A stretch of 64,000 bases of DNA, taken from contig JACRKB010000128.1 of NCBI GenBank assembly GCA_016235545.1, positions 580 to 64,579 of the forward strand. The letters run 5' to 3'. The position numbers were made by a program, and so were the translations under genes. The notes beneath the pieces were generated by a model. That model was not told the origin of the DNA and searched no databases. It was given only the letters and a program-made list of their open reading frames with translations. Source of the stretch: Verrucomicrobiota bacterium. Lineage in GTDB: Bacteria; Verrucomicrobiota; Verrucomicrobiia; Limisphaerales; SXTU01. Below, piece by piece: positions 5,830-22,741 of this stretch (position 1 is the stretch's first letter; every line of letters starts with the position of its first letter).

Positions 5830-5836
5830 GGCCCTT

Positions 5837-5894
5837 GCGCATTACGTGTTATCGACTGCCTCGATTGCGTAACGAGTAATGCGTAATCCGTAAC
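5837..5894. repeat. cgtaa-type heptamer repeat tract just upstream of the epimerase start codon
   Basis: Four consecutive 7-mers (gcgtaac gagtaat gcgtaat ccgtaac) occupy 5867-5894. An inverted copy, gcgcattacg, lies at 5837-5846. The tract ends 5 nt before the ATG at 5900. Confidence 0.6.
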
Positions 5895-5899
5895 CCGCC

Positions 5900-6928
5900 A
5901 TGTCCGCCTACGAAACCCTCCGCGCCGACCTGAAGAAATCCCCCCGCACCTGGCTCGTCACCGGGGCCGCCGGCTTCATCGGCTCCAACCTCGTCGAGCA
6001 TCTGCTCAAGCTCGACCAGCGCGTCGTGGGCCTCGACAACTTCGCCACCGGGCACCGCAAGAACCTCAACCAGCTCAAGGACCTCGTCACCGCCAGCCAG
6101 TGGGAGCGCTTCCGCTTCCTCGATGCCGACCTGCGCGTCGGCCACCTCTGCCACGAGGCGTGCGCCGGCGTGGATTACGTGCTGCACCAGGGCGCGCTGG
6201 GCTCCGTGCCGCGCTCCGTCGCCGACCCCGTGACCAGCAACGAGGCCAACGTCCTCGGCTTCTTGAACATCATGCTCGCCGCGCGCGACGCGCAGGTGAA
6301 GCGCCTCGTCTATGCCTCCAGCAGCAGCGTCTATGGCGACCACCCGGACCTGCCCAAGGTCGAGGACAAGGTCGGCAACGTCCTCTCGCCCTACGCCGCG
6401 ACCAAAAAGTTCAACGAGATTTACGCCGACGTCTTCGCGCGCACCTACGGCTTCAAGGCCATCGGCCTGCGCTACTTCAACGTCTTCGGCCCGCGTCAGG
6501 ACCCCGACGGAGCCTACGCGGCCGTCATGCCCAAGTGGGTCGCCTCGCTGCTGAAGAAGGAACCCGTCTTCATCAACGGCGACGGCGAGACCAGCCGCGA
6601 CTTCTGCTTCGTGGAAAATGTCGTGCAGGCAAATCTCCTCGCCGCCACCACGCAGAACGACGACGCGTTGAACCAAGCCTACAACATCGCCGTGGGAGAC
6701 CGCACCACGCTCAACGACCTCTACCGCGCCATCCACGACGGCCTGCGCCGGCGCAACCCGTCGCTGCCCGAGCAGAAGCCCACCTACCGTGAGTTCCGCG
6801 TGGGCGACGTTCGCCACTCGCTCGCGAACGTGGACAAGGCCCGCCGCCTCCTCGGCTACGCGCCCACGCACACGATGCCGCAGGGCCTCGAACTCGCGCT
6901 GGACTGGTATGTGGCGAATGTGCGGTGA
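5900..6928 (+). CDS. NAD-dependent UDP-HexNAc(A) C4-epimerase (WbpP / TviC-like SDR)
   Basis: 342 aa with [29 protein letters not shown] and the catalytic YAATK. This is the typical extended-SDR epimerase partner of WbpO/TviB-type dehydrogenases. Confidence 0.85.
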
Positions 6929-10186: not shown

Positions 10187-11470
10187 TCACCCTCCCAGCT
10201 CAAATCCCGGTATCGTCCCGCTGCCGGAGCTGGAGCCAAACGCGTTCACATCCGCGCCGAGGCGACGAAGGAACTGCACGTAAAGATTCGAGAGCGGCGG
10301 GTTCTTCTTCGGGTCGAACGCAAGGTGCTGGCCGTGCCGGAAGCCGCCGCCGGCCACAACGATGGGCATGTTTTTGTTGTCGTGGCTGCTGGCGTTGCCC
10401 AGGTTGCTGCCGAAGAGGACGATGGTGCGGTCGAGCAGAGTGCCACCCTGTTCGAGCGTGCCCTTGAGCTTGGCGAGCAGCTCTCCGAAGAGCTTCATCT
10501 GCTGGAGCTCCACGAGCTTTAACTCCGCAAGCTTGAGCGGATCCTGCCCGTGGTGCGAGAGATTGTGCCAGTCCTGCGTGACGCCAGCGATGACGGGCAC
10601 GGCGTTGAGGCCGTTCAGCGCGAAGGTGATGAAACGCGTCGAGTCCGTCTGGAGCGCGAGGTGCATCAGGTCAATCATCAGCCGCACGCGCGCGGGCACC
10701 TCGACGGAGCTGGCGATGTCCACCGGCGGCTTGGCGTCCACCTTCGGCTTGGGGCGCCGCGCCCAGTCCTGCGCCTTGACCATGCGCACCTCGACCTCGC
10801 GGACGGAGGTGAAATACTCGTCGAGCTTCTCGCGGTCGGGCTTGCCGAGGCCGCGTTGGAAATCCTTCGCCTCATCGAGCACCGTGTCCATGATGCTCTG
10901 GCCCTGCTTGAGCCGCTGCACCTGGGCGTTCACCTCGTTGACCGTGCCGTTCACGAACATATTGCGAAAGACGCGCGATGGCCGCTCATCCGCTGGAATT
11001 GGCACGCCGCTGCGCGTGAAGGACAAGCCCCGGCTCGACGACGACGCGAGCGTGAGCGAGCCGAACCGCGTGTCCGGCACGAGCTTCTCGATGGCGAACT
11101 GGTCGAGCGAGATGGTGTTCTTGAAATTGTCCGCGCGCGGGTGCGGGGCTGACGTGAGGTAGCACAGCTCGGCGGGATGCCCGCCATCCACCTCGGGATG
11201 CGAGAGGCCGGAGAAAACGGTGAAGTCGCGGCGAAATTCCGCGAGCGGTTCCAGATAAGGTGTCAGCGCGTAGTCCTTTCCCGCCGCCGAGGGAAACAAG
11301 TTCGGCGTGTGCAGCCCCAGCGTGGTGTTGATGCAAATCAGGCGGCGCGGCGGGGCGGCAGCCTGCGCGCGCAACGGCGTCATGGCCTCGAGCAACGGCA
11401 GCGCGAGCGTGACGCCGGCGCCGCGCAGGAAAGTGCGGCGGGAGAATGTGGCTTGGCGGTTGGTGTTCAT
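10187..11470 (-). CDS. DUF1501 domain protein (sulfatase-fold, Tat-signal)
   Basis: The track ORF is over-extended. The internal ATG at 11470 gives MNTNRQATFSRRTFLRGAGVTLALPLLEAM (twin-arginine signal), followed by conserved DUF1501-type blocks (GGHP..., SEFGR-like region, NHDN...). 428 aa. Confidence 0.8.
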   Translation of the reverse strand: MNTNRQATFSRRTFLRGAGVTLALPLLEAMTPLRAQAAAPPRRLICINTTLGLHTPNLFPSAAGKDYALTPYLEPLAEFRRDFTVFSGLSHPEVDGGHPAELCYLTSAPHPRADNFKNTISLDQFAIEKLVPDTRFGSLTLASSSSRGLSFTRSGVPIPADERPSRVFRNMFVNGTVNEVNAQVQRLKQGQSIMDTVLDEAKDFQRGLGKPDREKLDEYFTSVREVEVRMVKAQDWARRPKPKVDAKPPVDIASSVEVPARVRLMIDLMHLALQTDSTRFITFALNGLNAVPVIAGVTQDWHNLSHHGQDPLKLAELKLVELQQMKLFGELLAKLKGTLEQGGTLLDRTIVLFGSNLGNASSHDNKNMPIVVAGGGFRHGQHLAFDPKKNPPLSNLYVQFLRRLGADVNAFGSSSGSGTIPGFELGG

Positions 11471-11618
11471 GACAGGCTCAGGCGACCAGCGGACAATCAG
11501 ACGCGGAGACGGGGAGCGGTTAGTCATGCGCATTCGCGTGCGGCGGCTGCGGGCCGAAGGAACTCGCAAGCTACTTGCCCATGCCCGCCCGCGGGAGGAA
11601 GTCATGTCCAAACATGGC

Positions 11619-11753
11619 GGGCGCATCTTGACACTGCCCCCGGAGCGCCGGTCTCCGACCCGGCGGGTGGTGCAAAGCACCCGGAAACGCGCCGGATCGG
11701 AGATCGGCGCACCGCAATGCCAGTCAAGTCGGGGGCAGTGTCAAGATGCGCCC
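11619..11753. mobile_element. MITE-like 135-bp element with perfect 23-bp terminal inverted repeats and 9-bp target-site duplication
   Basis: The left end GGGCGCATCTTGACACTGCCCCC (11619-11641) is the exact reverse complement of the right end GGGGGCAGTGTCAAGATGCGCCC (11731-11753). Identical AAACATGGC copies flank it at 11610-11618 and 11754-11762. The interior is itself partly palindromic. Confidence 0.75.
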
Positions 11754-12750
11754 AAACATGGCTGGACGCGAGATTTCAACTTGGTCCGACGAGCGGACTG
11801 CGGGTAGGCTCCCTGCGCTCGTGGCTTCGACATTGGACAATCTCCCGCCGCACCGACATCGCGTCTATGGTCTGACTGTCGCGACATGGATTCCCTTTCC
11901 CGAATTGGAACCCGCGCCCGCCGACGCACCGGTGGACGCCGTCTTCCGCCTCGGCGAGGTGCCGACGGAACTGGCATCACCTCAGTTCTCGGGGGCGTGC
12001 TTCCAAACCGCGCCGGACAGCCTCTTGATGTGGGTGACAGAAGGTGCGCACTACCTGGTCAGGGCTGGGCGGGAAATCATCGTCCAACCCAAGCCTGGTG
12101 CTCCTCTGGATGCGGTGCGTGTTCTGTTGCTCTGCTGGCCTATGGGTGCGCTTTTGCTGCAACGAAGACTGCTGCCCCTCCACGCCAGTGTAATAGCCGC
12201 GCCGCGTGGGGCGGTTGCGTTCTTGGGAGCGTCCCGGGCCGGCAAGTCCACGCTCGCGGCTCATTTTCGAAAGGCCGGCTTTCGGGTGCTCTCCGACGAC
12301 ATCGCCGTGGTTCACTTTGCTCCCGATGGCCGGCCTTGGATTGCACCCGGGTATCCCCAATTCAAGTTATGGCCTGAGGTGGCAGAAAAACTCGGGGAGG
12401 ACGCCAGACGAATGCCGAATCTCTGGCCGAGCCAGCCCAAACGGTCGCTTTCGTTTCGGAGCGAGTTTCACTCCACAAGCCTCCCAATCGCCCGGCTCTA
12501 CGTCCTGGAACCCGTGGCTACAGATGAAGTTCAGTTGAGCCGGCTAGCTCCTTTCGAGAGCATCCGTTGCCTGGCCGAGCACACGTATCGCGCTCAATTT
12601 GTCCCGGGGTTGGGCTTGCAGAGCAGCCATTTCCAGTCCATCGCACGCTTAGCGGACGCAGTGCCCCTCACACGCGTCAGGCGTCCTGCACAAGGATTCC
12701 AACCGGAGAAGCTCACTTCAGTGCTGGCAGCAGACTTTGGGATGCCCTGA
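11746..12750 (+). CDS. HPr-kinase-like serine/threonine kinase of lasso-peptide clusters (precursor C-terminal kinase type)
   Basis: P-loop LHASVIAAPRGAVAFLGASRAGKSTLAAHF followed by VLSDDIAVV resembles the HprK C-terminal domain. It lies immediately upstream of B1/B2 genes. The ATG at 11746 is inside the MITE end, so the native start is probably ATG 11758 (MAGRE...). Confidence 0.75.
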   Translation: MRPNMAGREISTWSDERTAGRLPALVASTLDNLPPHRHRVYGLTVATWIPFPELEPAPADAPVDAVFRLGEVPTELASPQFSGACFQTAPDSLLMWVTEGAHYLVRAGREIIVQPKPGAPLDAVRVLLLCWPMGALLLQRRLLPLHASVIAAPRGAVAFLGASRAGKSTLAAHFRKAGFRVLSDDIAVVHFAPDGRPWIAPGYPQFKLWPEVAEKLGEDARRMPNLWPSQPKRSLSFRSEFHSTSLPIARLYVLEPVATDEVQLSRLAPFESIRCLAEHTYRAQFVPGLGLQSSHFQSIARLADAVPLTRVRRPAQGFQPEKLTSVLAADFGMP

Positions 12751-12861
12751 AAGTCTGAGGTAAGTTCAATCTTTCACTGCTCTTGGCCTTGTGTTTTAGT
12801 GTGCCCAGTCAGCTCAATCTGGGGCCAAGGCAGCCATGCCCTGCTCCAAGCCAGCAAAACC

Positions 12862-13167
12862 ATGCCACAGACGTTTTTGAACTTGGACTCGCGGGTCGCC
12901 CGGTCGACGGACTTGATCAGCAGTTCGGTGAGCGGCCAGACAGCCTTGATGAGCATCGCCAACGGGGCTTACTACGGGCTGGACCCAGTGGGCAGCCGCA
13001 TTTGGGAACTGATTGCAGAGCGTCGTCGGGTCGGGGCGATCTGCGAACAACTACTTGCAGAATTCGCCGTTGACCGGGCCAAGTGCGAAACTCAGGTGCT
13101 TGCATTCCTCCACCGACTGGCCAATGACGGGCTTCTGAGTGTGAGCCATGAGCAGCCGCGTGCTTAA
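12862..13167 (+). CDS. Lasso peptide biosynthesis PqqD-family chaperone (B1 / RiPP recognition element)
   Basis: Taking ATG 12862 gives 101 aa. The sequence LMSIANGAYYGLDPVGSRIWELIAERRRVGAICEQLLAEFAVDRAKCETQVLAFLHRLANDGLL is a typical PqqD/RRE pattern. Its 3' end overlaps the B2 start by 20 nt. Confidence 0.8.
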   Translation: MPQTFLNLDSRVARSTDLISSSVSGQTALMSIANGAYYGLDPVGSRIWELIAERRRVGAICEQLLAEFAVDRAKCETQVLAFLHRLANDGLLSVSHEQPRA

Positions 13168-13591
13168 GCTTGGGCGATGCAACTGGAGCGACCAAGCGCT
13201 GCTGATGGAGGCGGTGGCTTGGCTCTGCGGTGCCCGGCTCCTGCTCCTGCTCCTGCCATTTCGCTGGCTGGCCCCAAGGCTGGGCCAGGCGATGAGCGAA
13301 AGTCCGGCCCAGATAACCGAGCCTGAGCGCAAACTCGCCCTGCGGGTTTCATGGGCCGTCCAAGCAGTCGCCAGGAATCTCCCCCTCGGTTTTGTGTGTC
13401 TGCCCCAGGCGATCGCGGCCAAGTGGATGCTACAGCGGCGGCAACTCGCCACCACGCTCTACCTCGGAGTGGGCCGACCGGAGGATGCGGCACTCACCGC
13501 TCACGCTTGGTTGCGTGCCGGGGACAACATTCTCACCGGACGGGAAGCGAGCCTCCAGCACACAACCATCGCGTGGTTCGGCGACAAGTGA
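13148..13591 (+). CDS. Lasso peptide biosynthesis B2 protein (transglutaminase-like leader peptidase)
   Basis: 147 aa. The sequence FVCLPQAIAAKWMLQRRQLATTLYLGVGR...LTAHAWLRAGDNILTG matches the McjB-C / Transglut_core3 pattern, with a catalytic Cys and the His of AHAW. Confidence 0.85.
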   Translation: MSSRVLKLGRCNWSDQALLMEAVAWLCGARLLLLLLPFRWLAPRLGQAMSESPAQITEPERKLALRVSWAVQAVARNLPLGFVCLPQAIAAKWMLQRRQLATTLYLGVGRPEDAALTAHAWLRAGDNILTGREASLQHTTIAWFGDK

Positions 13592-13739
13592 TGCCATTGT
13601 TCACAAATGCGGTTGGCGGACGGGGGTAGCTGGTGGCGATTCAACCCTTCCCCGCCTCCACAAATAGATAAAAAATGCTTGCGCCAGCCATCGAAATCCA
13701 AGACAACGGAGACCGGTTTTTGAATCAACTAATCAATTT

Positions 13740-13880
13740 ATGAAAAACGACACCGAAACGCAGGACTCACAGCTCGAAAAGAAACAGTGGAACGAGCCGA
13801 CCGTCACCGAACTTTCCATCAACTTTGACACCCTTATCGGCTTAAACGCAGCCGTTGACGGTCTTAACACCAACACCTGA
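13740..13880 (+). CDS. Candidate lasso peptide precursor (46 aa), not in the ORF track
   Basis: ATG 13740 to TGA 13878-13880 translates to MKNDTETQDSQLEKKQWNEPTVTELSINFDTLIGLNAAVDGLNTNT. The leader has a WxxP motif and a Thr at -2 if cleaved after TL. The putative core IGLNAAVDGLNTNT has Asp8. The ORF lies in a locally AT-rich stretch, directly after B2 and directly before a strong terminator. Confidence 0.6.
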   Translation: MKNDTETQDSQLEKKQWNEPTVTELSINFDTLIGLNAAVDGLNTNT

Positions 13881-13904
13881 AGTTCAGGTCGAAAAGCTTC
13901 TTCC

Positions 13905-13942
13905 CGCCACGCTTGGGCTTTTCCAAGCGTGGCGTTTTCTTT
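13905..13942 (+). terminator. Rho-independent terminator after the precursor ORF (possibly bidirectional)
   Basis: A perfect 12-bp stem, cgccacgcttgg (13905-13916) against ccaagcgtggcg (13923-13934), has loop gctttt and is followed by ttttcttt (13935-13942). It sits between the convergent precursor and cyclase genes. Confidence 0.8.
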
Positions 13943-13983
13943 GAGTTGCGAAGCAATGCGCCGCAGAAAATCCTGCTCCCAAA

Positions 13984-15936
13984 TCATCTCGACCAAGGCA
14001 AGGGCCGTTCAATTTCGGGGCTGTCAAAGCGAAGGAGAAACATCCCCACCATCGTCCCGCGGGTGATCAGAGTCACGCACTCCATCGTGTTTTGCGCATT
14101 GATTCCGTATTGGAGTGAGTCAAGCACCCGCCGCAGGTGAGGCACGTCAACTGCCTCGTTCGCCAACGCAGAGCGTTCCATCCGCTCAAAAACCTCCCGT
14201 AACTCGTGAGCGGAAGCTCGAATCCGATAGCCGATATCCATCGCCTGCTTGCCGCGCTTGGGATTGAGGCGAACGGCGTCCGGGAGCAATCCATCCATCG
14301 CGCGCCTGAGCAACCATCGGGTTTGACCCCGGTGATAGAATTGGCTGTTGGGCACCCGCAGACAAAACTCAATCAACTCGGGGTCCATTGTCGGATCGCG
14401 CACGTCCAGGCCATAGGCGGCACCCAGTTCGGCCCAGCCACAGCCCACCGGGTTCTCCGCCAAGTTCATGACCGCCAGGCGTTCTTGATGCGGGTCCGAG
14501 AAGGAGAAGCTGGGGTTGTGTCCCGTGTCCTGCATCCGCTCGCGCAGATTCAATCCACGGGCAAACTCAGTCCGAATCGCCGAGTAGTTCAACCACGGTT
14601 CCTGCCAGTTCCCTTTTCGTTGCCGCCAACTCTCTCTGAGCGGTAGCAGGGCCGGCCGCAGCAGATGCCGACGGAAGACCATCGCGGCGGTGGGCTGCAG
14701 CTTTCTGGCGCGACCCCACAGGCCCCGCCAGCGCCCGTGCAGCAGGTCGGGCCACAAGCTCTCTGGCCAGCCAGTCCAGGAAACGCCGCCGTTGCCGAAC
14801 TGGCCCGTCAACAAAACACCGATCCCCCGTGCCCTCGCTTGTTCGAGCATGTCCACGATCCAAAAATGATTCACCGCCCCGTGCCCGGGTTCATCGCAAA
14901 TCTCCAAAACTCGTGCGAAGCCCGCCAGCGGAGAAATGCGCTCACCTCGGACATACTGCACATCCAGATTTCCGAAGTGAGCGCGGTTGGCCTCCACCAA
15001 CGGCTGCTCGTCGAAGAACAAGCCGGGCAGCTCAAACTCGATCTTGTGTAGCGGCACTGAGCAAAACGCCGCCAGTCGGCGTCCCTCGGCACGAAGCTCC
15101 CGTGCCGCCAGGGCGCAAACCGAACCGGAATCAAGCCCTCCGCTCAACGTGCCGCCCACCGCCCGCCCGCCGCGCATCCGCACCCGCACGGCGCGCGTGA
15201 ACTGTTCCCGGAACGCCTCGACGTATTCATCGTCGGACTTGAGCTCCAATGGAGCCAAAGTCTCGGGAAACCAATACCGCCGCTTCCTCATCTGGCCGCC
15301 CGCGCAAATGGTGAGGGTGTGTCCCGGTTCCAGTCGCACGATGCCTTCATACCCGCACAAATTGCCCCGGCCACTCCACGCTGTCAGCACTTGCGCAACG
15401 CGCAAGAGGTTTGGACGGCGCGGCATTTCTGGCACGGCCAGCAGGGCCTTGACACAGGAGGCGAACGCAAACCACCGCGGATTCGCGTGATAATAGAGGG
15501 AACTCACTCCGCACGGGCATTGGGCCAGGAACAAGCGGCGCTCGCGGGACTCCCAGATGGCGAACGCGAAATCACCGCGGAGGTGGAGCACGCAATCCTC
15601 ACCCCACTTCTGGAAGGCTCGCAGAATCAGCTCACCATCCCGCACGGCGGTGTGATTGTTCCCAGCAAGTGCGAGCTGGGTGGCCAGTTCCTCCCGGTTG
15701 TCCAAGCGAGCGGCCGCCGTGATGATCAGCCCGCCGTCTGAATCACGCAGGGGCAGCTGCTCCTGCAAACTTTCATGCGTGGCGTGCCGCAATAAATGCC
15801 CAAGCCCCACGTTGCCATCGTGCCAGAGGCCGGCACCGTCCGGCCCCCAGTAGGCCATCGCCCCGCGCATCCCTTCGAGGGCGCTGCGATCCACGGGCCT
15901 TCCATCCAGGGAGAAATAGCCGTAAATGCCACTCAT
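13984..15936 (-). CDS. Lasso peptide cyclase (asparagine synthetase-like, C protein)
   Basis: The track ORF is trimmed to ATG 15936 (MSGIYGYFSLDG...), giving 650 aa. It has the AsnB fold with PP-loop TLSGGLDSGSVCALA, but the N-terminal nucleophile Cys is replaced (MSGI instead of MCGI), as expected for lasso cyclases. It is convergent with B1/B2/A. Confidence 0.8.
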   Translation of the reverse strand: MSGIYGYFSLDGRPVDRSALEGMRGAMAYWGPDGAGLWHDGNVGLGHLLRHATHESLQEQLPLRDSDGGLIITAAARLDNREELATQLALAGNNHTAVRDGELILRAFQKWGEDCVLHLRGDFAFAIWESRERRLFLAQCPCGVSSLYYHANPRWFAFASCVKALLAVPEMPRRPNLLRVAQVLTAWSGRGNLCGYEGIVRLEPGHTLTICAGGQMRKRRYWFPETLAPLELKSDDEYVEAFREQFTRAVRVRMRGGRAVGGTLSGGLDSGSVCALAARELRAEGRRLAAFCSVPLHKIEFELPGLFFDEQPLVEANRAHFGNLDVQYVRGERISPLAGFARVLEICDEPGHGAVNHFWIVDMLEQARARGIGVLLTGQFGNGGVSWTGWPESLWPDLLHGRWRGLWGRARKLQPTAAMVFRRHLLRPALLPLRESWRQRKGNWQEPWLNYSAIRTEFARGLNLRERMQDTGHNPSFSFSDPHQERLAVMNLAENPVGCGWAELGAAYGLDVRDPTMDPELIEFCLRVPNSQFYHRGQTRWLLRRAMDGLLPDAVRLNPKRGKQAMDIGYRIRASAHELREVFERMERSALANEAVDVPHLRRVLDSLQYGINAQNTMECVTLITRGTMVGMFLLRFDSPEIERPLPWSR

Positions 15937-16053
15937 ACGATTCGTTTCAACGAAAGGGTCGGCGGCGGTCCTTGGACTCGATACCTGCCTGATCAAACCA
16001 CCGCGCGCGCTTTGTCATAGAGTGCAGCATAGCTAAGGACTACGGCGACAAGT

Positions 16054-17109
16054 TTATGGGGTAGAGCCGCGGGAATTGGAGTTGATCGTCGGCGAAAGCT
16101 GAGGTTCAAGCTGTCGGGCAAATTCCTCGGCAATCACGCGATTCACCCAAGGCCGCAGATGCCCGCCTGAATGCGGATTGTGCAGGGGCAGCTCCGGAAT
16201 CGAGGCGCGCGTGGACTCGACTGCTGGCCACCAGTCTGCGAACGCCACAGAATTGCTGGCCGCCCACGACTTGAGCCAGTCATACGAATGCGAGGGCGCG
16301 GCGGCCCAACCGACCACCAGAGTTGTGTTCGTGGCACGGCACTGCACCTTTAACCGTTCGAATACGCTCCGCTGCTGCTCTGCCACGGAAGGGCCGGAGC
16401 GCACACCGGCAGGCACCGAGGACGTGGGCGGTCGTTTCACCGCCACTCGGAGACGCTTGCCAATCTCCGTCTCTGCCGCCCAGCGCGCGAGCGGCAACGT
16501 CGCGCCCCAGCGCGGGCTGCCATCCACCAGATGCCGGTGTCGGTCGCCGCGCAGGAACATGGCGTCATCGCTTCCGTCGTTCTCCGCACCGAGATAGAGC
16601 ACCACGTCGGGCCGGCCCAGCTTCTCGATGAAGCGGCGCAGGATGAGCAGCGACTGCTCGCCGCCGTTCGCGGCTAGGCCGAGGTTGATCACCGCCACGC
16701 GTCTCTCGTAACGGCCAGCGGCGTCGCGGTTCAGCAAGAGATCGAGTTGAAAGGGATATACCGCGTCCGCCGGCAGGCCCGTGCCCTGCGTGTAGGAATC
16801 TCCGAGCGCGAACAGGCGGGCGCGGTAGCCAGAGAAATCCTCCTGAAAGTTGACTGTGCCCAACCGGTTGACACGCAGCTCCTGCTGGTGGTCGGTGGTC
16901 CGCAGTGCATGAACGCCCGGCTTTGCGCGGACGCCCAGTTCGGCATCGAACTCGTAGGCCCTCGGAAAGCCGACCAAGTGCATGGGCGCAAACAGCCGCA
17001 GCGCTACTTCGCCGGCCACGAGCATCAGCCCACAAGTAGCCGTCGCCAATGCCAGCCGCGCGAGTGGGCGATGTGAGCGAGCTGGATAGTTGATGTGGGT
17101 CGGAGTCAT
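16054..17109 (-). CDS. SGNH/GDSL-type hydrolase family protein with N-terminal TM anchor
   Basis: 351 aa with an N-terminal hydrophobic segment, the block I-like LFALGDSYTQGTG, the block III-like YLGAENDGSDD and a C-terminal HSGGH region. It lies between the nucleotidyltransferase and the cyclase. Confidence 0.6.
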   Translation of the reverse strand: MTPTHINYPARSHRPLARLALATATCGLMLVAGEVALRLFAPMHLVGFPRAYEFDAELGVRAKPGVHALRTTDHQQELRVNRLGTVNFQEDFSGYRARLFALGDSYTQGTGLPADAVYPFQLDLLLNRDAAGRYERRVAVINLGLAANGGEQSLLILRRFIEKLGRPDVVLYLGAENDGSDDAMFLRGDRHRHLVDGSPRWGATLPLARWAAETEIGKRLRVAVKRPPTSSVPAGVRSGPSVAEQQRSVFERLKVQCRATNTTLVVGWAAAPSHSYDWLKSWAASNSVAFADWWPAVESTRASIPELPLHNPHSGGHLRPWVNRVIAEEFARQLEPQLSPTINSNSRGSTP

Positions 17110-17118
17110 CGTCAGACG

Positions 17119-18309
17119 CTAGCCGCGGCGCATGCGCCGGCGCAACCACAGCAGCGGCGCGGCCGGGTAGTAGAGCGCGAACAACCGGTCCGGCAACCGC
17201 AGCATCTTCCAGTTGGCTGGCGACATGAGGCGAGGCCGCAGCACGGCGGCCTTTGCAGACCAGTCGCCACGCAACCGCAGTTGATAGCGGGTCTGCCGCA
17301 GCAGTTCCCGCAGGCCCGGCTGGTCCGCCTCAGCCCGGTTCATGCGCCGCAGTGCAGAGTTGACGAGCCAGCTCACCCGTGACGCATGCACCGTTGGCAC
17401 GTTCACCCGTTCCGGCACCGTGACGCCAAACAGCACTTCCACCAGCCGCGCACCTTGCCAGACGGACGCTTCCACGCCGGACGCCCGAGCCATCCTCATC
17501 ACTTGCGGCCAGTCAACCCCGCCGTGGACCAGCAGCCGTGCCAAGTCCACAAGCCAGAACAGGCGGAACCATTCGTGGCCCGCACCGTGGACGAACAGGT
17601 AGAGCGCCTCCGTCTCCGCCGGCAGCCGCGCCAGTTCGACGCCGCCGAGCGCTTCCCGTGTGCCCGACTTCAGCCACTCATTGAAAGCCTGACGCCCCAG
17701 TCCCTCCAGCCGCCACTCGACCTCGATGCGCACGCCGGTCGCGTCGTTGAAATACTCGAACTCGTGCTTGAGCCGCTGGTATTCGCGGCGCTGCCGGGGC
17801 GTCAGTTCGAAGTCTGGCTGTGAACGGCGGCAGCCGGCGGCGAGCAGAGCCTTGTCGGCGTCGCCGAGGCGGGCGGGTGCGATGAGCAAATCCAAGTCGC
17901 CTGCGTGCCGCACACCGACGCCCCCATAGAGCGCTTGCGCCAGCAGCGGACCCTTCACGCTGAGGAAAGGAATGCCCGCGTTCGCGAACAGCCGGGCGAT
18001 GCGCACCAGCTCCGCAGACCGCACCAGCGCGAGCCGCGCCGTGCGCCGGGCAGTTTCCGTGAGTTGCTCCTGCACAGCCGCAGGCAGCGCCGCGCGCACG
18101 TCTCCGGCGAGGTGATGATGCAGATACGCCCCCACGCGATGCCTCGCGACGACGGCACCAAACGCGGTGGCATCAAGTCCGGCTGGCCAGTGAAAGTCCT
18201 CCGCCCCCGCTGTGCCAAGCGCCAAGCGCAGCAGTTGCACCAGCGCCTTCAACTCCGGCGGCCACGCGGCCACGCGAGGGGACAGTTGGGCTGGCAGCGC
18301 GGCGGTCAT
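17119..18309 (-). CDS. Uncharacterised nucleotidyltransferase (NTP_transf_5 / PF14907-like), lasso-cluster associated
   Basis: 396 aa. The sequence FLSVKGPLLAQALYGGVGVRHAGDLDLLIAP matches the family hallmark (KG..LA...Y......R..gDlDLLv). Its ATG overlaps the stop of the upstream ABC gene (ATGA at 18306-18309). Confidence 0.75.
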   Translation of the reverse strand: MTAALPAQLSPRVAAWPPELKALVQLLRLALGTAGAEDFHWPAGLDATAFGAVVARHRVGAYLHHHLAGDVRAALPAAVQEQLTETARRTARLALVRSAELVRIARLFANAGIPFLSVKGPLLAQALYGGVGVRHAGDLDLLIAPARLGDADKALLAAGCRRSQPDFELTPRQRREYQRLKHEFEYFNDATGVRIEVEWRLEGLGRQAFNEWLKSGTREALGGVELARLPAETEALYLFVHGAGHEWFRLFWLVDLARLLVHGGVDWPQVMRMARASGVEASVWQGARLVEVLFGVTVPERVNVPTVHASRVSWLVNSALRRMNRAEADQPGLRELLRQTRYQLRLRGDWSAKAAVLRPRLMSPANWKMLRLPDRLFALYYPAAPLLWLRRRMRRG

Positions 18310-20087
18310 GGCAAGTCCAGCCCAGCCGACATCAACCGGCGGAAGGCGCCTCCCTCGCGACGGGTCAGTTCACCGGGCGCGCCGCTTTCCACCACGCGCC
18401 CGTGTTCGAGCACGATGACTTGGTCGGCATTCTGAACGGTTGAGAGCCGGTGCGCGATGATGACGAGGGTCAGCTCTCCGTGCAGCCGCTCGATGGCCTG
18501 CTGGATAATCTGCTCGTTCACCGTGTCCAGCGCGCTGGTTGCCTCATCGAGCACCAGCAACGTCGGCTGCCGCAGAAGCGCGCGGGCCAGCGCGAGTCGT
18601 TGCCGCTCACCTCCTGAGAGACGCACGCCGCGGTCGCCCACAATGGTTTCCAAGCCCTGCGGCAGTCGGCTTACAAACTCTTCCGCAGCCGCAGCCCGCA
18701 GCGCGGCGACGAGTTCGGCCTCAGTCGCCTCGGGCCGCGCCCAGAGCAGGTTCGCCCGGATGCTTTCGTGAAACAGAAACGTCTCCTGCGGCACATAGCC
18801 CACGCTCGCGCGCCACGCGTGGACGCGCTCGCCCTCCAGCGCCGCATCGTCCACCAGGACGCGTCCGGCGGAGGGGCGCAACAGGCCCAGCAGCAGGTCG
18901 GCGATGGTGCTCTTGCCCGCGCCCGATGGACCGCAGATGGCGGTCATCTGGCGTGCCGGGATTTTGAGGCTCACACCTGCCAGCACTTCCCGCCCCTCGA
19001 CACCGGGATAGCGGAAGGAAACGGTGTCGAAGCAAACTTCGCCAGCAACCGCGACGCGCGCCATCATCGGCGGGGATGCGGCCTCCTGCGCGGCGATGAA
19101 CTGTTCCCGCAGCTGTTCCGCAGCCGTGAACGATGGAATCATGTGCATCACCCGCTGCCAGTTGCTCTGCAGCGCCGCCAGCCGTGGCAGCAACCGCGCG
19201 AAGATGAAGACAAGCAGCAGCAGCTCGGGCGTGCTCAGGCCCGCGTAGCGCACTGCGGCAAAGAGGAACAAACTCAGCACCACCACCGCGCCCAGTTCGT
19301 AGGCCGCGCGAGTCGTGGCATACACGCGCGTTGCGTCGAGGATGTGCGCGACGATGTCTGCCAGCACACGGCGGAAGTGGGCGAGGTGATGCGCCTCGCG
19401 GCCGTGGCTCTTGGCGACCTTGAGGCCGGCGAGATGCTCCGTGATGGCGGCGGCCATGTCCGCGCGGCGTTCCTGGCCTTCTTTGCCGAGATTGTAGGCG
19501 CGGCGTGTGAGCGGGCGCAGCGCCAGAGCCAGCGCCAGGCCGCTGCCCAGCGCCAGCGCGGTCAACACCGGCGAAAGCGCCAGCGCCAGCGACGCCTGCA
19601 CCAGCGCCACGCCCGCGAGGCCCAACCCCGCGAGCAGTTGCTGCGTGCCGAAGCCGACGCGCTGGATTTCATCCGTGAGCACCTGCGTGATGTCCGACGC
19701 CCGCTGCCGCGTGAAGAACAGCCAGTCCGCCCGGACCATCGCCGCATAAAGCTCTTCGCGCAGCCGGCTCGTGAAAGCGGTCTCAATCCCCGCGTTGAGC
19801 AGATCAAGCGTGTGCCGCAGCGCAATCTGCGCGGCCATGAAGGCGATGAAAATGACCAGCGCCACCGGCAGGGTCAGCGGCAGGCCGACCGCCTGCCACA
19901 CGTCCGCAAGTCCCGTCGCCAGCCCGCTGCTCGCGCGCGGTCCGCCAGTGCCGATGAGTTCCAACACCGGCAGCAGCACCACCAGCCCGGCACCCTCCAG
20001 CACGCCCACCACGACCGTGAGCACGACCGAGAGGCCGACGCGGTTGCCGGCGTGGTTCAGGAAGCAGCGGAGGTAAGTGGCAAGCAT
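18306..20087 (-). CDS. ABC transporter permease/ATPase fusion (lasso peptide exporter, McjD-like D protein)
   Basis: Trimmed to ATG 20087 (MLATYLRCF...), giving 593 aa. It has a 6-TM exporter domain, then Walker A GPSGAGKST, the signature LSGGERQRLALARALL and Walker B LLVLDEATSALD. Confidence 0.85.
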   Translation of the reverse strand: MLATYLRCFLNHAGNRVGLSVVLTVVVGVLEGAGLVVLLPVLELIGTGGPRASSGLATGLADVWQAVGLPLTLPVALVIFIAFMAAQIALRHTLDLLNAGIETAFTSRLREELYAAMVRADWLFFTRQRASDITQVLTDEIQRVGFGTQQLLAGLGLAGVALVQASLALALSPVLTALALGSGLALALALRPLTRRAYNLGKEGQERRADMAAAITEHLAGLKVAKSHGREAHHLAHFRRVLADIVAHILDATRVYATTRAAYELGAVVVLSLFLFAAVRYAGLSTPELLLLVFIFARLLPRLAALQSNWQRVMHMIPSFTAAEQLREQFIAAQEAASPPMMARVAVAGEVCFDTVSFRYPGVEGREVLAGVSLKIPARQMTAICGPSGAGKSTIADLLLGLLRPSAGRVLVDDAALEGERVHAWRASVGYVPQETFLFHESIRANLLWARPEATEAELVAALRAAAAEEFVSRLPQGLETIVGDRGVRLSGGERQRLALARALLRQPTLLVLDEATSALDTVNEQIIQQAIERLHGELTLVIIAHRLSTVQNADQVIVLEHGRVVESGAPGELTRREGGAFRRLMSAGLDLP

Positions 20088-20223: not shown

Positions 20224-20421
20224 TCAGAACAGAGTGTAGATGAACGGGGCCGCAGCCGTGCCACCGAGGATGAGCAGCGCGCCGATGGCCAGCAGCGCCA
20301 GCAGCAGCGGGATGAGCCAGAACTTCTTGTTTTCGCCGAGGAAGGCGATGAACTCCTTCACGAGGCCGGGCTGCGCCTGCTCGCCAGCCTTCTCAAAGTC
20401 GTTTGGTTTCTGGTCGCTCAT
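20224..20421 (-). CDS. DUF5989 family small membrane protein (SxtK-like)
   Basis: Real start is ATG 20421, giving 65 aa: MSDQKPNDFEKAGEQAQPGLVKEFIAFLGENKKFWLIPLLLALLAIGALLILGGTAAAPFIYTLF. The KKFWL...APFIYTLF ending is the family hallmark. Confidence 0.8.
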   Translation of the reverse strand: MSDQKPNDFEKAGEQAQPGLVKEFIAFLGENKKFWLIPLLLALLAIGALLILGGTAAAPFIYTLF

Positions 20422-20444: not shown

Positions 20445-20885
20445 CTAGAACTGACGGTAGTAACGCTTTGCTTCCGGTGCGGGCGGCGCGTCCACCCAAT
20501 AGGTGCTGGCCTGTCGATCCGGAGTCTTGCGGATGGGCTGCCGCCCGCCAAGCCGTTTCAGGAAGCCGATGCCCGTGACCAGCACGTAGAAAATCAGGCC
20601 CAGCAGGACATTGCCAACGACAATCCCGACGCAGCACGCGAGCGCATACCAGACGATGTAAAACGGCCTGGCGATGGCAGGCACCACGTAGAAGAGCGCG
20701 CCAGCCGCCGCGCCGCCGCCGCCGAGTTTCAGCGCGAAGGAAAGATTCCAGCCCTTGCCCGCGAGGAGGCCGGCCAACAGGAAGGCAACCGCGACACACG
20801 GAAACCCGATGACCAAGCTCCGTGCAAACGTGCGGAGCGCCGCCCTGTCCGGGTTCCAGTTAACTTCTTTGAACGGGTTGACCAT
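20445..20885 (-). CDS. SxtJ-like small membrane protein
   Basis: The track start is TTG; ATG 20885 (MVNPFKEV...) gives 146 aa with 3-4 TM helices. It holds the position between a carbamoyltransferase and DUF5989, as in SxtI-J-K type triads. Confidence 0.65.
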   Translation of the reverse strand: MVNPFKEVNWNPDRAALRTFARSLVIGFPCVAVAFLLAGLLAGKGWNLSFALKLGGGGAAAGALFYVVPAIARPFYIVWYALACCVGIVVGNVLLGLIFYVLVTGIGFLKRLGGRQPIRKTPDRQASTYWVDAPPAPEAKRYYRQF

Positions 20886-20890
20886 GTGGC

Positions 20891-22741
20891 TCAATCCAGC
20901 TTGAAACTCTCAATGTATCTTTTCCGTTGACCTTCGTCCTGCTGCGGCTGCTCGGTGCGGCGGAGCACGCAGTTCTCCAGCACCAGCAAGTCCATATCCG
21001 ACGCCCTGAAGCAGCGGTAAGCGTCCTGCGGCGTGCAGACGATCGGCTCGCCCCGGATGTTGAAGCTCGTGTTGATGATGACGCCGCAGCGGGTCTGGCG
21101 TTTGAACTCCTTCATCAGCCGCCAGTAACGCCCGTGCCGCTCCTCGTCCACGGTTTGAATGCGCGCACTCATGTCCACATGGGTGATGGCCGGCAGCGTC
21201 GAGCGTAGGACGTTCACGCGCTTGCGCAGATCGGGGTCTTTCTGCAACTGCCGCTGCTCGGGCGTGAGCGGCAGCCTATGTTTCTTCTTCACGTCGGCCA
21301 CCATCAGCATGTAGGGCGACTCGCGGTCGTGGTCGAAATACTTGGCCACATCCTCGATGAGCACGCACGGAGCGAAGGGGCGGAAGCTCTCGCGGAATTT
21401 GATGCGCACGTTCATCTGCGACTGCATCGCCGGGCTTCGCGGGTCGCCGATGATGCTGCGCGCGCCGAGTGCGCGTGGGCCGAATTCCATACGTCCGCTG
21501 AACCAGCCGACCACTTTCTCCGAGGCCATTTCCTTCGCGACAGCTTCCAGCAACTCCGGCTCCTGCTCGTAAAACGTGTAGCGAACTTGCTGGCCGTCGA
21601 GGAAAGCGCGGATTTCCTCGTTCGAGAATTTCGGACCGAGCAGCGAGCCTTTGAGCGAGTCTTTCCGCGAAGCCGTGTGCGTGCGCGGCTGGTCGAGCAA
21701 CTGGTGTTGCACAAAGAGCGCCGCGCCCAGCGCACCGCCCGCATCGCCCGACGCGGGCGTGACAAACACGTCCTCGAAGATTCCAGCGCGGAGCAACCTG
21801 CCATTTGCGACGCAATTGAGCGCGACGCCGCCTGCGAGGCAGAGATTCTTGCTGCCGGTAAGCTCCTTCGCATGCCGGGCCATGCGCAGGACAATCTCCT
21901 CCGTGACCTTTTGAATCGAGGCTGCGATGTCCATCTCGCGCTGCGTGATGGCGGACTCGACGCTGCGTGCGGGGCCGCCGAAGAGCGACGCGAACTTGGC
22001 GTTCGTCATTGTCAGCCCCTGGCAGAAGTTGAAGTAGCTCATGTCCATCGCGAGCGAGCCGTCGGGCTTCACGTCCACGAGATGCTTGAGAATGGTGTCC
22101 ACGTATCGCGGCTCACCGTAGGGCGCGAGGCCCATGAGCTTGTATTCTCCCGAGTTGACCTTGAAGCCGCAGAAGTAGGTCACCGCGCTGTAAAGCAGGC
22201 CGAGCGAGTGTGGGAAGTGAAGCGTTTTGAGGAGTTTGATTTTGTTCCCCTGCCCATGCCCGATGGTCGCGGTGTCCCACTCGCCGACTCCGTCGAGCGT
22301 GAGGATGGCCGCGTCTTCGTAGGCCGACGGAAAAAAGGTGCTGGCCGCATGCGACTCGTGGTGGCCTGTGAACGCGATGCGTTTTCTGTAGCGGCCTCCA
22401 AGAGCGTTCCGAATCTCGCGGGGCAGGTGCAGCTTGGTCTTCAGCCACACCGGCATCGCCATCATGAAGGACTGAAGTCCGGCGGGCGCGAATGCGAGGT
22501 AGGTTTCCAGCAGGCGGTCGAACTTGAGCAGCGGCTTGTCGTAGAAGACGACATGGTCGAGCTGCTCTGGCGTGAGGCCGGCCTCGCGCAGGCAGTAATC
22601 CACGGCGTGCTTCGGAAACTCGGAGTCATGCTTGATGCGCGTGAAGCGTTCCTCCTGCGCGGCGGCGACGATGTCCCCATCCACAACGAGCGCGGCGGCG
22701 CTGTCGTGGTAGTAGGCGGAGATGCCGAGAATGCGGGCCAT
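20891..22741 (-). CDS. Carbamoyltransferase (NodU/CmcH family)
   Basis: 616 aa. The sequence MARILGISAYYHDSAAALVVDGDIVAAAQEERFTRIKHD has the typical N-terminal ASKHA-like fold signature, and a C-terminal YrdC-like carbamoyltransferase domain is present. Confidence 0.9.
   Translation of the reverse strand: MARILGISAYYHDSAAALVVDGDIVAAAQEERFTRIKHDSEFPKHAVDYCLREAGLTPEQLDHVVFYDKPLLKFDRLLETYLAFAPAGLQSFMMAMPVWLKTKLHLPREIRNALGGRYRKRIAFTGHHESHAASTFFPSAYEDAAILTLDGVGEWDTATIGHGQGNKIKLLKTLHFPHSLGLLYSAVTYFCGFKVNSGEYKLMGLAPYGEPRYVDTILKHLVDVKPDGSLAMDMSYFNFCQGLTMTNAKFASLFGGPARSVESAITQREMDIAASIQKVTEEIVLRMARHAKELTGSKNLCLAGGVALNCVANGRLLRAGIFEDVFVTPASGDAGGALGAALFVQHQLLDQPRTHTASRKDSLKGSLLGPKFSNEEIRAFLDGQQVRYTFYEQEPELLEAVAKEMASEKVVGWFSGRMEFGPRALGARSIIGDPRSPAMQSQMNVRIKFRESFRPFAPCVLIEDVAKYFDHDRESPYMLMVADVKKKHRLPLTPEQRQLQKDPDLRKRVNVLRSTLPAITHVDMSARIQTVDEERHGRYWRLMKEFKRQTRCGVIINTSFNIRGEPIVCTPQDAYRCFRASDMDLLVLENCVLRRTEQPQQDEGQRKRYIESFKLD

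Follow-up and report, generated by a model that had tools for sequence, protein, structure and literature searches.

The 64,000-nucleotide stretch of DNA analyzed here (the window) most probably carries a functional paeninodin-like class II lasso peptide cluster of a Verrucomicrobiota bacterium, tailored by a kinase and a nucleotidyltransferase; we put the probability of this reading at about 0.8. The cluster (11746-20087) consists of two convergent operons, with K, B1, B2, A and a terminator on the plus strand and D, NT, SGNH and C on the minus strand (Table 1). A gene-by-gene check recovered all elements named by an earlier note on this DNA exactly where it had placed them. The precursor (A), B1, B2, C, D and three accessory genes are all real, and the roles proposed for them were backed by comparative data.

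Table 1. Features of the lasso peptide cluster and their positions in the window.
Feature	Position	Strand	Characteristics
K, HprK-like precursor-peptide kinase	11746-12750	+	P-loop GASRAGKST; invariant H146, D184-D185
B1, PqqD-like RiPP recognition element	12799-13167	+	PF05402, 67.6 bits (gathering score 23.4)
B2, transglutaminase-like leader peptidase	13148-13591	+	Cys in CLPQAIA, His/Asp in AHAWLRAGD
AT-rich conserved region before A	13670-13739	+	AAAAATGCTTGC and CCGGTTTTTGAA blocks invariant in window, L001 and L005
A, precursor, 46 codons	13740-13880	+	leader 1-32 MKNDTETQDSQLEKKQWNEPTVTELSINFDTL, predicted core (14 aa) IGLNAAVDGLNTNT
Intrinsic terminator after A	13905-13944	+	12-13 bp stem, then U-run; serves both convergent operons
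C, Asn-synthetase-like lasso cyclase, 650 aa	13984-15936	-	MSGIYG start, PP-loop SGGLDS
SGNH/GDSL hydrolase	16054-17109	-	N-terminal membrane anchor; starts 9 nt past NT stop codon
NT, PF14907 nucleotidyltransferase, PsmN/BsfN/LppN type	17119-18309	-	GDLDLL metal-binding motif
D, MsbA-like ABC exporter, 593 aa	18306-20087	-	TMD + NBD; ABC_membrane + ABC_tran

Gene content, profile matches and host

Gene identities and synteny were read directly from the sequences and their comparison. B1 and B2 overlap by 20 nt, D and NT are joined by a 4-nt ATGA overlap visible in the sequence, and 9 nt separate NT from SGNH. A terminator-like hairpin upstream of D (20195-20169) marks the operon boundary. The cluster had been described as lying within a glycan locus, and it is in fact surrounded by genes for a UDP-glucose dehydrogenase, an ABC-2 permease and ATPase, a carbamoyltransferase and two GT4 proteins. 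The host is an uncultured Verrucomicrobia-like bacterium with Limisphaerales and Verrucomicrobiota MAGs as closest named relatives, which fits the PVC lineage guessed earlier. A literature search for a characterized lasso peptide from the PVC group found none.

HMM support for the cluster is far beyond chance. Among the models that the earlier note had proposed as checks, PF13471 (Transglut_core3) matched B2 with 86.7 bits (gathering score 26), PF00733 (Asn_synthase) matched C with 114.6 bits and PF14907 matched NT with 166.3 bits (gathering score 31.2); PF05402 and PF00733 also cleared their gathering scores. GATase_7 and GATase_6 were further matches of C, and D likewise cleared its Pfam thresholds. 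The exception was K, which was matched by no model of the Pfam-A copy used, the proposed PF07475 included. Its homology to HPr kinase was seen only at profile level (1jb1, E = 1e-6) and through the characterized lasso kinase BsfK (33% identity over 113 aa of the catalytic core, E = 2e-7). Among NCBIfam models, lasso_biosyn_B2 (NF033537; cut-off 33) matched B2 with 85.6 bits. B1 remained slightly under the cut-off of lasso_PqqD_Bac (NF033536; 77.2 bits, cut-off 80), and the best match of C, the lasso isopeptide cyclase NF033535, scored 405.6 bits, under the cut-off of 525. These two scores and the failure of K with PF07475 count against our explanation. The expectation that the system would escape generic annotation was only partly borne out: B1, C and K may get generic names because of the scores below cut-off and the lacking Pfam match, whereas B2 clears the NCBI lasso model and PF13471, PF05402 and PF00733 pass.

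In C the Ntn Cys is replaced by Ser, so that an N-terminal Cys is absent. A second AsnB gene in the window (25038-26828) has an MCGI start, unlike C.

Precursor and tailoring genes

Judged from its conservation, the 46-codon open reading frame is a real precursor gene: it is retained in relatives, and the leader has changed mostly at synonymous positions. Homologues with 80% and 72% identity were found in syntenic clusters. Comparison of leader codons 12-32, the recognition part of the leader, with L001, from one of the closest clusters, revealed six synonymous changes and one non-synonymous change next to a variable core. All ten Verrucomicrobia-type precursor homologues have WxxP with W(-16), T(-2) and D8 and end in Ser or Thr. 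The predicted core IGLNAAVDGLNTNT would form an Ile1-Asp8 ring followed by the six-residue tail GLNTNT. The core size is at the lower limit, a bulky plug residue is absent, and the core ends in Thr instead of Ser. Paeninodin has a core of 23 aa and a ring of nine residues.

The AT-rich region preceding A probably provides this gene with a separate promoter or a 5' UTR; farther upstream, the sequences of the window, L001 and L005 diverge. No Shine-Dalgarno sequence was visible in this region. The strong terminator was placed at 13905-13934 in the gene-by-gene check. Its stem, conserved in L001 and L005, consists of 13 pairs in the scan and 12 pairs in the minimum-free-energy fold (-24.7 kcal/mol, z = -5.45).

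The true start of K is probably GTG 11821, giving 309 aa, because homologues have about 310 aa (more than 441 of that size) and residues 1-28 are disordered in the AF2 model. This model (pLDDT 91) displayed a PEPCK/HprK-like fold. The K family exceeds 10,000 cluster representatives, and the alignment columns G166, K167, S168, D184 and D185 are invariant. In 32 kinase loci of at least 9 kb, C was also present in 26, B1 in 23 and NT, across phyla, in 11. B1 probably starts at ATG 12862, giving 101 aa, and its homologues are called at the same length.

The SGNH protein scored 27.5 with PF13472, under the gathering score of 32.9. GDS (S105), G144, N177 and H313/H317 were invariant across 54 homologues, and the AF2 model (pLDDT 91) contains a helix at residues 14-40. 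Among fold matches of the model, the RiPP SGNH peptidase CgnD ranked first and GDSL esterases came next. The protein pairs with NT and is a candidate for a new accessory enzyme.

Proposed pathway and alternative readings

The product is predicted from the genes; one point against our explanation is that neither this cluster nor any close relative has an observed product. We infer each chemical step, in the following order, and the threaded topology. B1 would bind the 46-aa precursor via the leader motif W17-x-x-P20-x-V22...L25, as the family pattern suggests. K would phosphorylate Thr46, since the target of PadeK and PsmK is the C-terminal Ser of the precursor (PMC6993621, PMC9266682, PMC8498205) and the C-terminal Ser/Thr is the sole hydroxyl residue conserved across the precursor family. 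B2 would cut after Leu32, with Thr at -2, and C would activate Asp8 and link it to the Ile1 amine, yielding an 8-residue macrolactam with the six-residue tail. By analogy with PsmN, which puts one or two hexoses on the phosphate (PMC6993621, PMC9266682, PMC8498205), NT may decorate the phosphate. D would export the product. The substrate of the membrane-anchored SGNH protein might be the group that NT installs or the peptide after export; the leading guess for its chemistry is that it hydrolyzes or transfers an O-acyl ester on the sugar.

The Thr acceptor counts against this explanation, since Ser is the residue modified by the characterized kinases of this type and LppK rejected a Ser-to-Thr substrate (PMC13381572). 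Phosphorylation of Ser3 instead of the C-terminus by BsfK (PMC10368454) also argues against a C-terminal target. A further point against it is that PF14907 enzymes do not yet have a settled biochemical function; LppN was inactive in heterologous expression (PMC13381572).

Threading is uncertain because the six-residue tail lacks a bulky residue; the largest side chains of GLNTNT and its relatives GLMNNT and GGLTMT are Leu, Met and Asn. It is conceivable, albeit not the likelier outcome, that the product is a branched-cyclic peptide or that threading needs a bulky C-terminal phospho-(glycosyl) group as lower plug. Unmodified pseudomycoidin was reported to be unthreaded, and its authors proposed the phospho-hexose as a lock (PMC6993621). 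The canonical cyclase and B proteins argue against an unthreaded product. The same holds for the xanthomonins, lasso peptides that are 14-16 aa long and have small plugs.

It seems unlikely that SGNH is a glycan-modifying or housekeeping esterase present in the operon by chance, although it is missing in both of the closest clusters (L001-L004 and L005), which counts against our explanation. Homologues with 50-58% identity belong to polysaccharide loci or to unrelated ones, together with Wzx, Wzy, GT4, AlgX or PMT_2, the whole cluster including SGNH is embedded in a glycan locus, and the membrane anchor points to the periplasm. However, SGNH lies inside the D-NT-SGNH-C operon, and this arrangement recurs in independent samples. 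Homologues with at least 76% identity directly follow a PF14907 NT in 5/5 close contexts. One of these, L029, shares 74% identity with the window in NT, 83% in SGNH and 59% in K, but only 31% in C, and in its left flank lies PSCyt1, a cytochrome-like gene for which the window showed no counterpart there. By sequence comparison, SGNH thus appears to move together with NT between unrelated lasso clusters.

Cleavage could fall one residue later, since the W-to-Thr spacing is 14 versus the canonical 15 of YxxPxL...T(-2). An aromatic residue at -17, as the YxxPxL rule demands (PMC10368454), would place the cut after Ile33, giving GLNAAVDGLNTNT with a seven-residue Gly1-Asp7 ring and Thr at -3; three of the closest precursors would then begin with Gly1, a common first residue. 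We consider this register improbable: other family members would begin with Gln, Asn or Asp, with Thr at -3 throughout, whereas in the T(-2) register all ten have Asp8, and their first residue is Ala, Ser, Ile, Thr or Asn. In addition, leader spacing varies in this cluster type and is 13 in the paeninodin-like precursor L036.

Although K, RRE, NTP-transferase and exporter modules also make linear phosphopeptides in Bacillota (PMC13381572) and BsfK and LppK phosphorylate Ser3 (PMC10368454, PMC13381572), an LPP-like module or an internal target of K such as T12 is very improbable, given a single precursor, no signal-peptidase-I-like gene in the region, intact B2 and C, Leu, Asn or Val at core position 3 in the precursor family, and an L005 core (IGNGVAADGLMNNT) whose only hydroxyl residue is the C-terminal Thr.

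Comparison with known systems

The pairing of a kinase with a PF14907 nucleotidyltransferase is already known and defines the paeninodin, pseudomycoidin and bsf type (PMC6993621, PMC10368454, PMC13381572). K and NT together with B1, B2, C and D represent this previously described architecture, and the earlier note overstated its novelty. The pseudomycoidin cluster psmCAKB1B2ND of Bacillus pseudomycoides shares precursor, HprK-like kinase, split B1/B2, cyclase, PF14907-type NTP transferase and ABC exporter with the window, as well as a C-terminal hydroxyl residue as acceptor and a first core residue other than Gly (Ala1). It differs in its Bacillota host, colinear instead of convergent genes, a C-terminal Ser instead of Thr and the lack of an SGNH gene (PMC6993621). 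Pseudomycoidin is also the larger peptide, with a 9-residue ring that we read as Ala1 to Glu9 (m/z 2618 versus 1354.7 predicted for the window peptide; PMC6993621).

Paeninodin (padeCAKB1B2D, Paenibacillus dendritiformis) likewise has a split B protein, an ABC exporter and an HprK-like kinase, whose phosphorylation target is the last residue of the linear precursor; the acceptor is Ser, and nucleotidyltransferase and SGNH genes are absent (PMC8498205, PMC5067487). The metagenomic precursor L036 contains a W-x-x-P...T-x leader similar to that of the window. The bsf cluster of Bradymonas sediminis, a Gram-negative host, comprises A, B1, B2, C, D, K and N genes as in the window, but differs in the Ser3 target, leader Ile(-2), canonical Y(-17) spacing and the lack of an SGNH gene, and its product was never detected (PMC10368454). 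The LPP linear phosphopeptide RiPPs of Bacillota share HprK-like kinase, discrete RRE, an uncharacterized NTP transferase and MsbA-like exporter. They use a signal-peptidase-I-like leader peptidase and have neither cyclase nor B2, in contrast to the window (PMC13381572).

CgnD, the SGNH-family leader peptidase of crocagin, is a precedent for an SGNH enzyme acting on a RiPP and the best structural match of the SGNH model (PDB 8a2n, E = 1.4e-6; PMC10885120), but the two proteins share only 14% identity and the TM-score is 0.43-0.49. Unlike in the crocagin case, the window already has B2 as leader peptidase, and its SGNH protein is membrane-anchored and belongs to a wider family found in glycan loci. 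Compared with the phosphorylated paeninodin-like type, the only unusual features are the C-terminal Thr, the 14-residue core and the extra SGNH gene, while the host phylum sets the cluster apart from characterized lasso clusters.

Gene content and genomic context

An ORF map of the 9-23 kb region recovered every gene that the earlier note had named as part of a complete lasso peptide cluster: a kinase (K), a PqqD-type RRE (B1), a leader peptidase (B2) and a precursor (A), convergent with an ABC exporter (D), a nucleotidyltransferase (NT), an SGNH hydrolase and a cyclase (C). The start of D was placed at Met60 of a long ORF because a terminator-like hairpin (20195-20169) lies upstream.

Features of the cluster and its neighbors in the window
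Feature	Coordinates	Strand	Remarks
DUF1552 (HXXSHH) protein	10187-11680	-	twin-arginine-like RRTFLRGAG signal
K, HprK-like kinase	11746-12750	+	334-aa ORF; GASRAGKST
B1, PqqD-like ORF	12799-13167	+	20-nt overlap with B2
B2, leader peptidase	13148-13591	+	147-aa ORF; CLPQAIAAKWML...AHAWL
A, precursor	13740-13880	+	46-codon ORF
Hairpin followed by U-run	13905-13934	+	-24.7 kcal/mol; z = -5.45 vs shuffles
C, Asn-synthetase homologue	13984-15936	-	650 aa; MSGIYG start; PP-loop SGGLDS
SGNH gene	16054-17109	-	351 aa; 9 nt beyond NT
NT, nucleotidyltransferase	17119-18309	-	396 aa; joined to D by an ATGA overlap
D, ABC exporter	start at 20087	-	Met60 of long ORF
DUF5989 protein	20224-20421	-	65 aa
SxtJ-like membrane protein	20445-20894	-	
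Carbamoyltransferase	20891-22741	-	NodU/CmcH type
Second Asn-synthase-family gene	25038-26828	-	596 aa; MCGIAA

B1 scored 67.6 bits against PF05402 (PqqD; gathering score 23.4) and 77.2 bits against the lasso-specific model NF033536, slightly below the cut-off of 80. B2, in which Cys, His and Asp are all present, reached 86.7 bits with PF13471 (Transglut_core3; gathering score 26) and 85.6 bits with the lasso B2 model NF033537 (cut-off 33). C matched PF00733 (Asn_synthase; 114.6 bits) and two GATase domains above the gathering scores and carries Ser in place of the Ntn Cys. Its top NCBIfam match was the lasso isopeptide cyclase NF033535 (E = 4e-121), at 405.6 bits below the strict cut-off of 525. 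Failure of B1, B2 or C against such models, which the earlier note had regarded as fatal to its proposal, was therefore not observed: all three exceed the Pfam gathering scores, and the NCBIfam cut-off is passed by B2 alone. Furthermore, NT matched PF14907 above the gathering score (166.3 bits) and contains a GDLDLL motif, and D exceeded the gathering scores of both ABC_membrane and ABC_tran. A pseudogenised or misassembled cluster was ruled out, as all ORFs are intact and a near-identical D-NT-SGNH-C-A-B2-B1 arrangement occurs in two independent sequencing runs.

The cluster lies in a glycan locus with UDP-glucose dehydrogenase, ABC-2 permease and ATPase, and DUF1552 genes on one flank and DUF5989, SxtJ-like, carbamoyltransferase, two GT4 and MCGI Asn synthase genes on the other; the flanks of L001, one of the kinase-bearing loci compared with the window, are the same. 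The DUF1552 gene is located directly upstream of K. In another such locus, L029, a DUF1552 homologue adjoins a PSCyt1-domain gene, a pairing typical of Planctomycetes and Verrucomicrobia. The DUF5989/SxtJ/carbamoyltransferase trio directly adjoins D, has the same position in L001 and L112, and suggests a carbamoylated glycan or other product. The second Asn-synthase-family gene was ruled out as a cluster member: its true MCGI N-terminus is that of an Ntn-Cys glutamine amidotransferase, and it lies among glycosyltransferases (GT4). It is only 30% identical to the lasso cyclase and is probably part of the glycan locus.

Named relatives of the kinase loci were Limisphaerales, Opitutaceae, Pelagicoccus and 'Verrucomicrobiota bacterium' MAGs; Limisphaerales is part of the PVC group, and the PVC host guessed from the sequence is consistent with these relatives. 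The MAGs containing L005, L008, L014 and L016 are labelled 'Klebsiella pneumoniae' or 'uncultured Klebsiella sp.', and these labels look wrong. Their kinases are 50-81% identical to that of the window, and the lasso gene order of L005 equals the window's.

Precursor family and predicted core peptide

A search of 5.8 billion sequences returned a single other cluster for precursor A, at 80% identity, and a third homologue (72%) was present in L005. In each case the gene lies in a syntenic gene cluster, with B2 on one side and the convergent cyclase on the other. In DNA alignments the A ORF, a block of about 70 nt upstream and the terminator stem were conserved, and the flanks had diverged. Comparison of the window with L001 showed six synonymous changes and one non-synonymous change in leader codons 12-32, and four changes in the core, every one non-synonymous. 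Such conservation of the leader alongside a variable core is typical of RiPPs. Precursor A matched no NCBIfam or Pfam precursor model, and no second precursor or other small ORF with the leader motif was present in the 9-22 kb region of the window.

Mining of the kinase loci yielded more precursors of the Verrucomicrobia type, in L006, L008, L012, L014, L016 (two) and L029. When aligned at WxxP, ten out of ten precursors showed a Thr 14 residues past the Trp, one further residue, an eight-residue stretch with Asp as its last position, and Ser or Thr at the C-terminus. In the window these positions are W17xxP20xV22, T31 at -2 and Asp at core position 8. Under the usual Thr(-2) rule the predicted core is IGLNAAVDGLNTNT, in which Ile1 and Asp8 would close the ring and GLNTNT would form the tail. 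Cleavage one residue later, giving a Gly1-Asp7 ring, follows from the YxxPxL(-17..-12) rule as quoted in PMC10368454. However, other family members would then begin with Gln, Asn or Asp, and the leader spacing is clearly variable in this cluster type, being 13 in L036, a paeninodin-like metagenomic precursor. We consider this later cleavage rather improbable and retain the Ile1-Asp8 ring as the predicted form.

The C-terminal residue is Thr in precursor A and its close relatives and Ser in the more distant Verrucomicrobia-type precursors. In the L005 core, IGNGVAADGLMNNT, the C-terminal Thr is the sole hydroxyl residue, which, among the comparative evidence, argues most strongly for the C-terminus as the kinase target.

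Two other loci contain peptides of a different appearance. L017, a deltaproteobacterial locus with K, B1, B2, C and NT, encodes three small peptides (14613-14928 and 13602-13763), each with a W-x-x-P-[TA]-L leader motif and a very short acidic C-terminal part (...LATWEVPEETQA). They lie outside the Thr(-2)/Asp8 pattern and may follow a different processing logic. The kinase-associated precursor at L042:668-898 (minus strand) has the predicted core LNAIADGDTTS, and the three residues beyond its ring Asp are not enough for a threaded tail.

The HprK-like kinase family

The Pfam check proposed in the earlier note did not identify K, which matched no Pfam model, PF07475 included, even at E <= 0.1 with a shorter start. 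Searches of PDB sequences with K and NT alone also gave nothing useful. A profile of 31 members of the K family, in contrast, matched two HPr kinase structures, 1jb1 and 2qmh, at E = 1e-6; the match spans the H-x-S...GxSGxGKS...DD segment. The invariant residues are G166, K167, S168, D184, D185, H146 and R313, among them those of a P-loop and a DD motif. In the AF2 model of K (pLDDT 91), which matched PEP carboxykinases at E = 1e-7, residues 1-28 are disordered, and this fits a GTG start at 11821. The catalytic domain of HprK shares a structural superfamily with PEPCK. BsfK of Bradymonas sediminis, a lasso precursor kinase characterised by experiment (PMC10368454), was obtained as a protein sequence by translating the codon-optimised bsfK gene printed in that paper. 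It shares 33% identity with K across 113 catalytic-core residues (E = 2e-7).

A word-indexed search returned more than 441 K homologues, nearly all of about 310 aa and several labelled Verrucomicrobiota. Against 1.84 billion representatives the K profile found 44,595 proteins at E <= 1e-3 and 10,336 at E <= 1e-30. Kinase loci were located with a 13-sequence subset because the 31-sequence alignment was too divergent for that purpose. In tblastn searches with the window proteins, the 32 kinase loci that span 9 kb or more contained a cyclase in 26 cases, B1 in 23, B2 in 15 and a PF14907 gene in 11. Kinase relatives from the metagenome scan were all distant (at most 43% identity, with one short partial match at 46%); the scan informed overall statistics and supplied precursors of other subtypes, but was of no use for the family of the window itself. 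In metagenomes the K family is very large (more than 10,000 representatives at a 50% identity level), and almost none of it has been studied.

The SGNH gene and comparison with known systems

The SGNH protein scored 27.5 bits with PF13472, below the gathering score of 32.9. Residues G103, D104, S105, G144, N177, D178 and H313/H317 show little or no variation, and these GDS, G, ND and H blocks correspond to blocks I (GDS), II (G), III (GxND) and V (His), which place the protein in the SGNH/GDSL superfamily. A model of the protein matched best CgnD (E = 1.4e-6, TM 0.43-0.49), followed by GDSL and carbohydrate esterases. CgnD belongs to the SGNH family and serves as leader peptidase in the biosynthesis of the RiPP crocagin (PMC10885120); it was also the sole mention that a full-text search gave for lasso peptides together with SGNH. 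The SGNH gene is the one component of the cluster for which we found no precedent in the literature. A helix (residues 14-40) preceded by basic residues is located at the N-terminus, and the candidate enzyme probably acts outside the cytoplasm.

The gene is absent from the two closest clusters, L001-4 and L005. Where present in the window it is not an assembly artefact, as an identical protein in the same D-NT-SGNH-C context occurs in two other sequencing runs. Homologues of 76-83% identity lie directly 3' of the PF14907 gene in L029, an ERZ1305449 contig, L112 and L116; those of 50-58% identity never adjoin NT and are found in polysaccharide or unrelated loci. L029 is 74% identical to the window in NT, 83% in SGNH, 59% in K, 67% in B2 and only 31% in the cyclase; NT and SGNH therefore appear to travel jointly between different lasso clusters. 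We infer that SGNH is an accessory enzyme tied to the NT step.

In most other NT-SGNH clusters two genes without a Pfam match follow SGNH, encoding 148-178 aa and a hydrophobic, probably multi-pass membrane protein of 281 aa (L029:3904-5282 and 5303-6448; L112:5853-7141; L116:2477-3855). Next comes a methyltransferase-like gene of 381-382 aa in L029 and the ERZ1305449 contig. None of these genes occurs in the window, and they may be further members of an NT-linked tailoring module. Relatives of the window cluster carry sulfotransferase and JmjC hydroxylase genes. A 278-287-aa PF00685 sulfotransferase gene lies between K and B1 in many loci (cited: L006, L008, L010, L014, L015, L016 and L019), and a JmjC/cupin hydroxylase gene of about 400 aa adjoins K in some (cited: L001-L003 and L012). 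The window contains no JmjC hydroxylase, sulfotransferase or methyltransferase gene and neither of the two membrane-protein genes of its relatives. Related Verrucomicrobia clusters thus exchange accessory genes, and the family draws on a combinatorial set of tailoring genes. Sulfotransferase genes in phosphorylated lasso clusters have been noted earlier (PMC8498205).

NT and SGNH might form a two-enzyme module that attaches a new, possibly acylated, phospho-linked decoration to the C-terminal Thr, so that a bulky group and not a side chain plugs a minimal 14-residue lasso. We regard this as distinctly unlikely. If true, lasso peptide chemistry would thereby be described for the first time from the PVC group, and the suspected partner of PF14907 transferases would have been identified.

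In the paeninodin pathway, PadeK phosphorylates the linear precursor at its C-terminal Ser (PMC8498205). PsmK adds one to three phosphates to the C-terminal Ser in pseudomycoidin, PsmN, an uncharacterised NTP transferase, is required for one or two hexoses on that phosphate, and D-to-A mutants of both are inactive (PMC6993621; PMC9266682). The bsf cluster of Bradymonas contains A, B1, B2, C, D, K and N (PMC10368454). A module of K, RRE, NT and an MsbA-like pump also serves a family of linear phosphopeptides (LPP), in which LppK rejects a Ser-to-Thr substrate and LppN was inactive in heterologous expression, a partner protein being suspected by the authors (PMC13381572). Given these precedents, the architecture of the window is of a described kind. 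The finding holds, and the earlier lasso interpretation was essentially right.

With this cluster, the lasso family tailored by kinase and nucleotidyltransferase reaches into Verrucomicrobiota. For Verrucomicrobia, Verrucomicrobiota and Planctomycetes the full-text literature yielded metagenomic BGC counts only and no characterised lasso peptide, and the searchable literature likewise gave none for the PVC group as a whole. The small substrate lets one ask whether a C-terminal Thr is usable by an HprK-like RiPP kinase. Further questions are what PF14907 transferases attach, whether they need a partner, for which the SGNH protein moving with the transferase gene is a candidate, and whether a 14-residue core threads without a bulky tail residue and without C-terminal modification. 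Current understanding is not overturned. Judged from its genes, the window encodes a paeninodin/pseudomycoidin-type lasso cluster and not a new kind of system, its chemistry being predicted throughout. It shares the HprK-like kinase with paeninodin-like clusters but has a C-terminal Thr as candidate acceptor instead of Ser, and its NT is a putative counterpart of PsmN, likened to it via the papers' description of PsmN as an 'uncharacterized nucleotidyltransferase' family member. What sets it apart is its phylum, the C-terminal Thr, the predicted 14-residue core with a plug-less six-residue tail, and the NT-linked SGNH gene.
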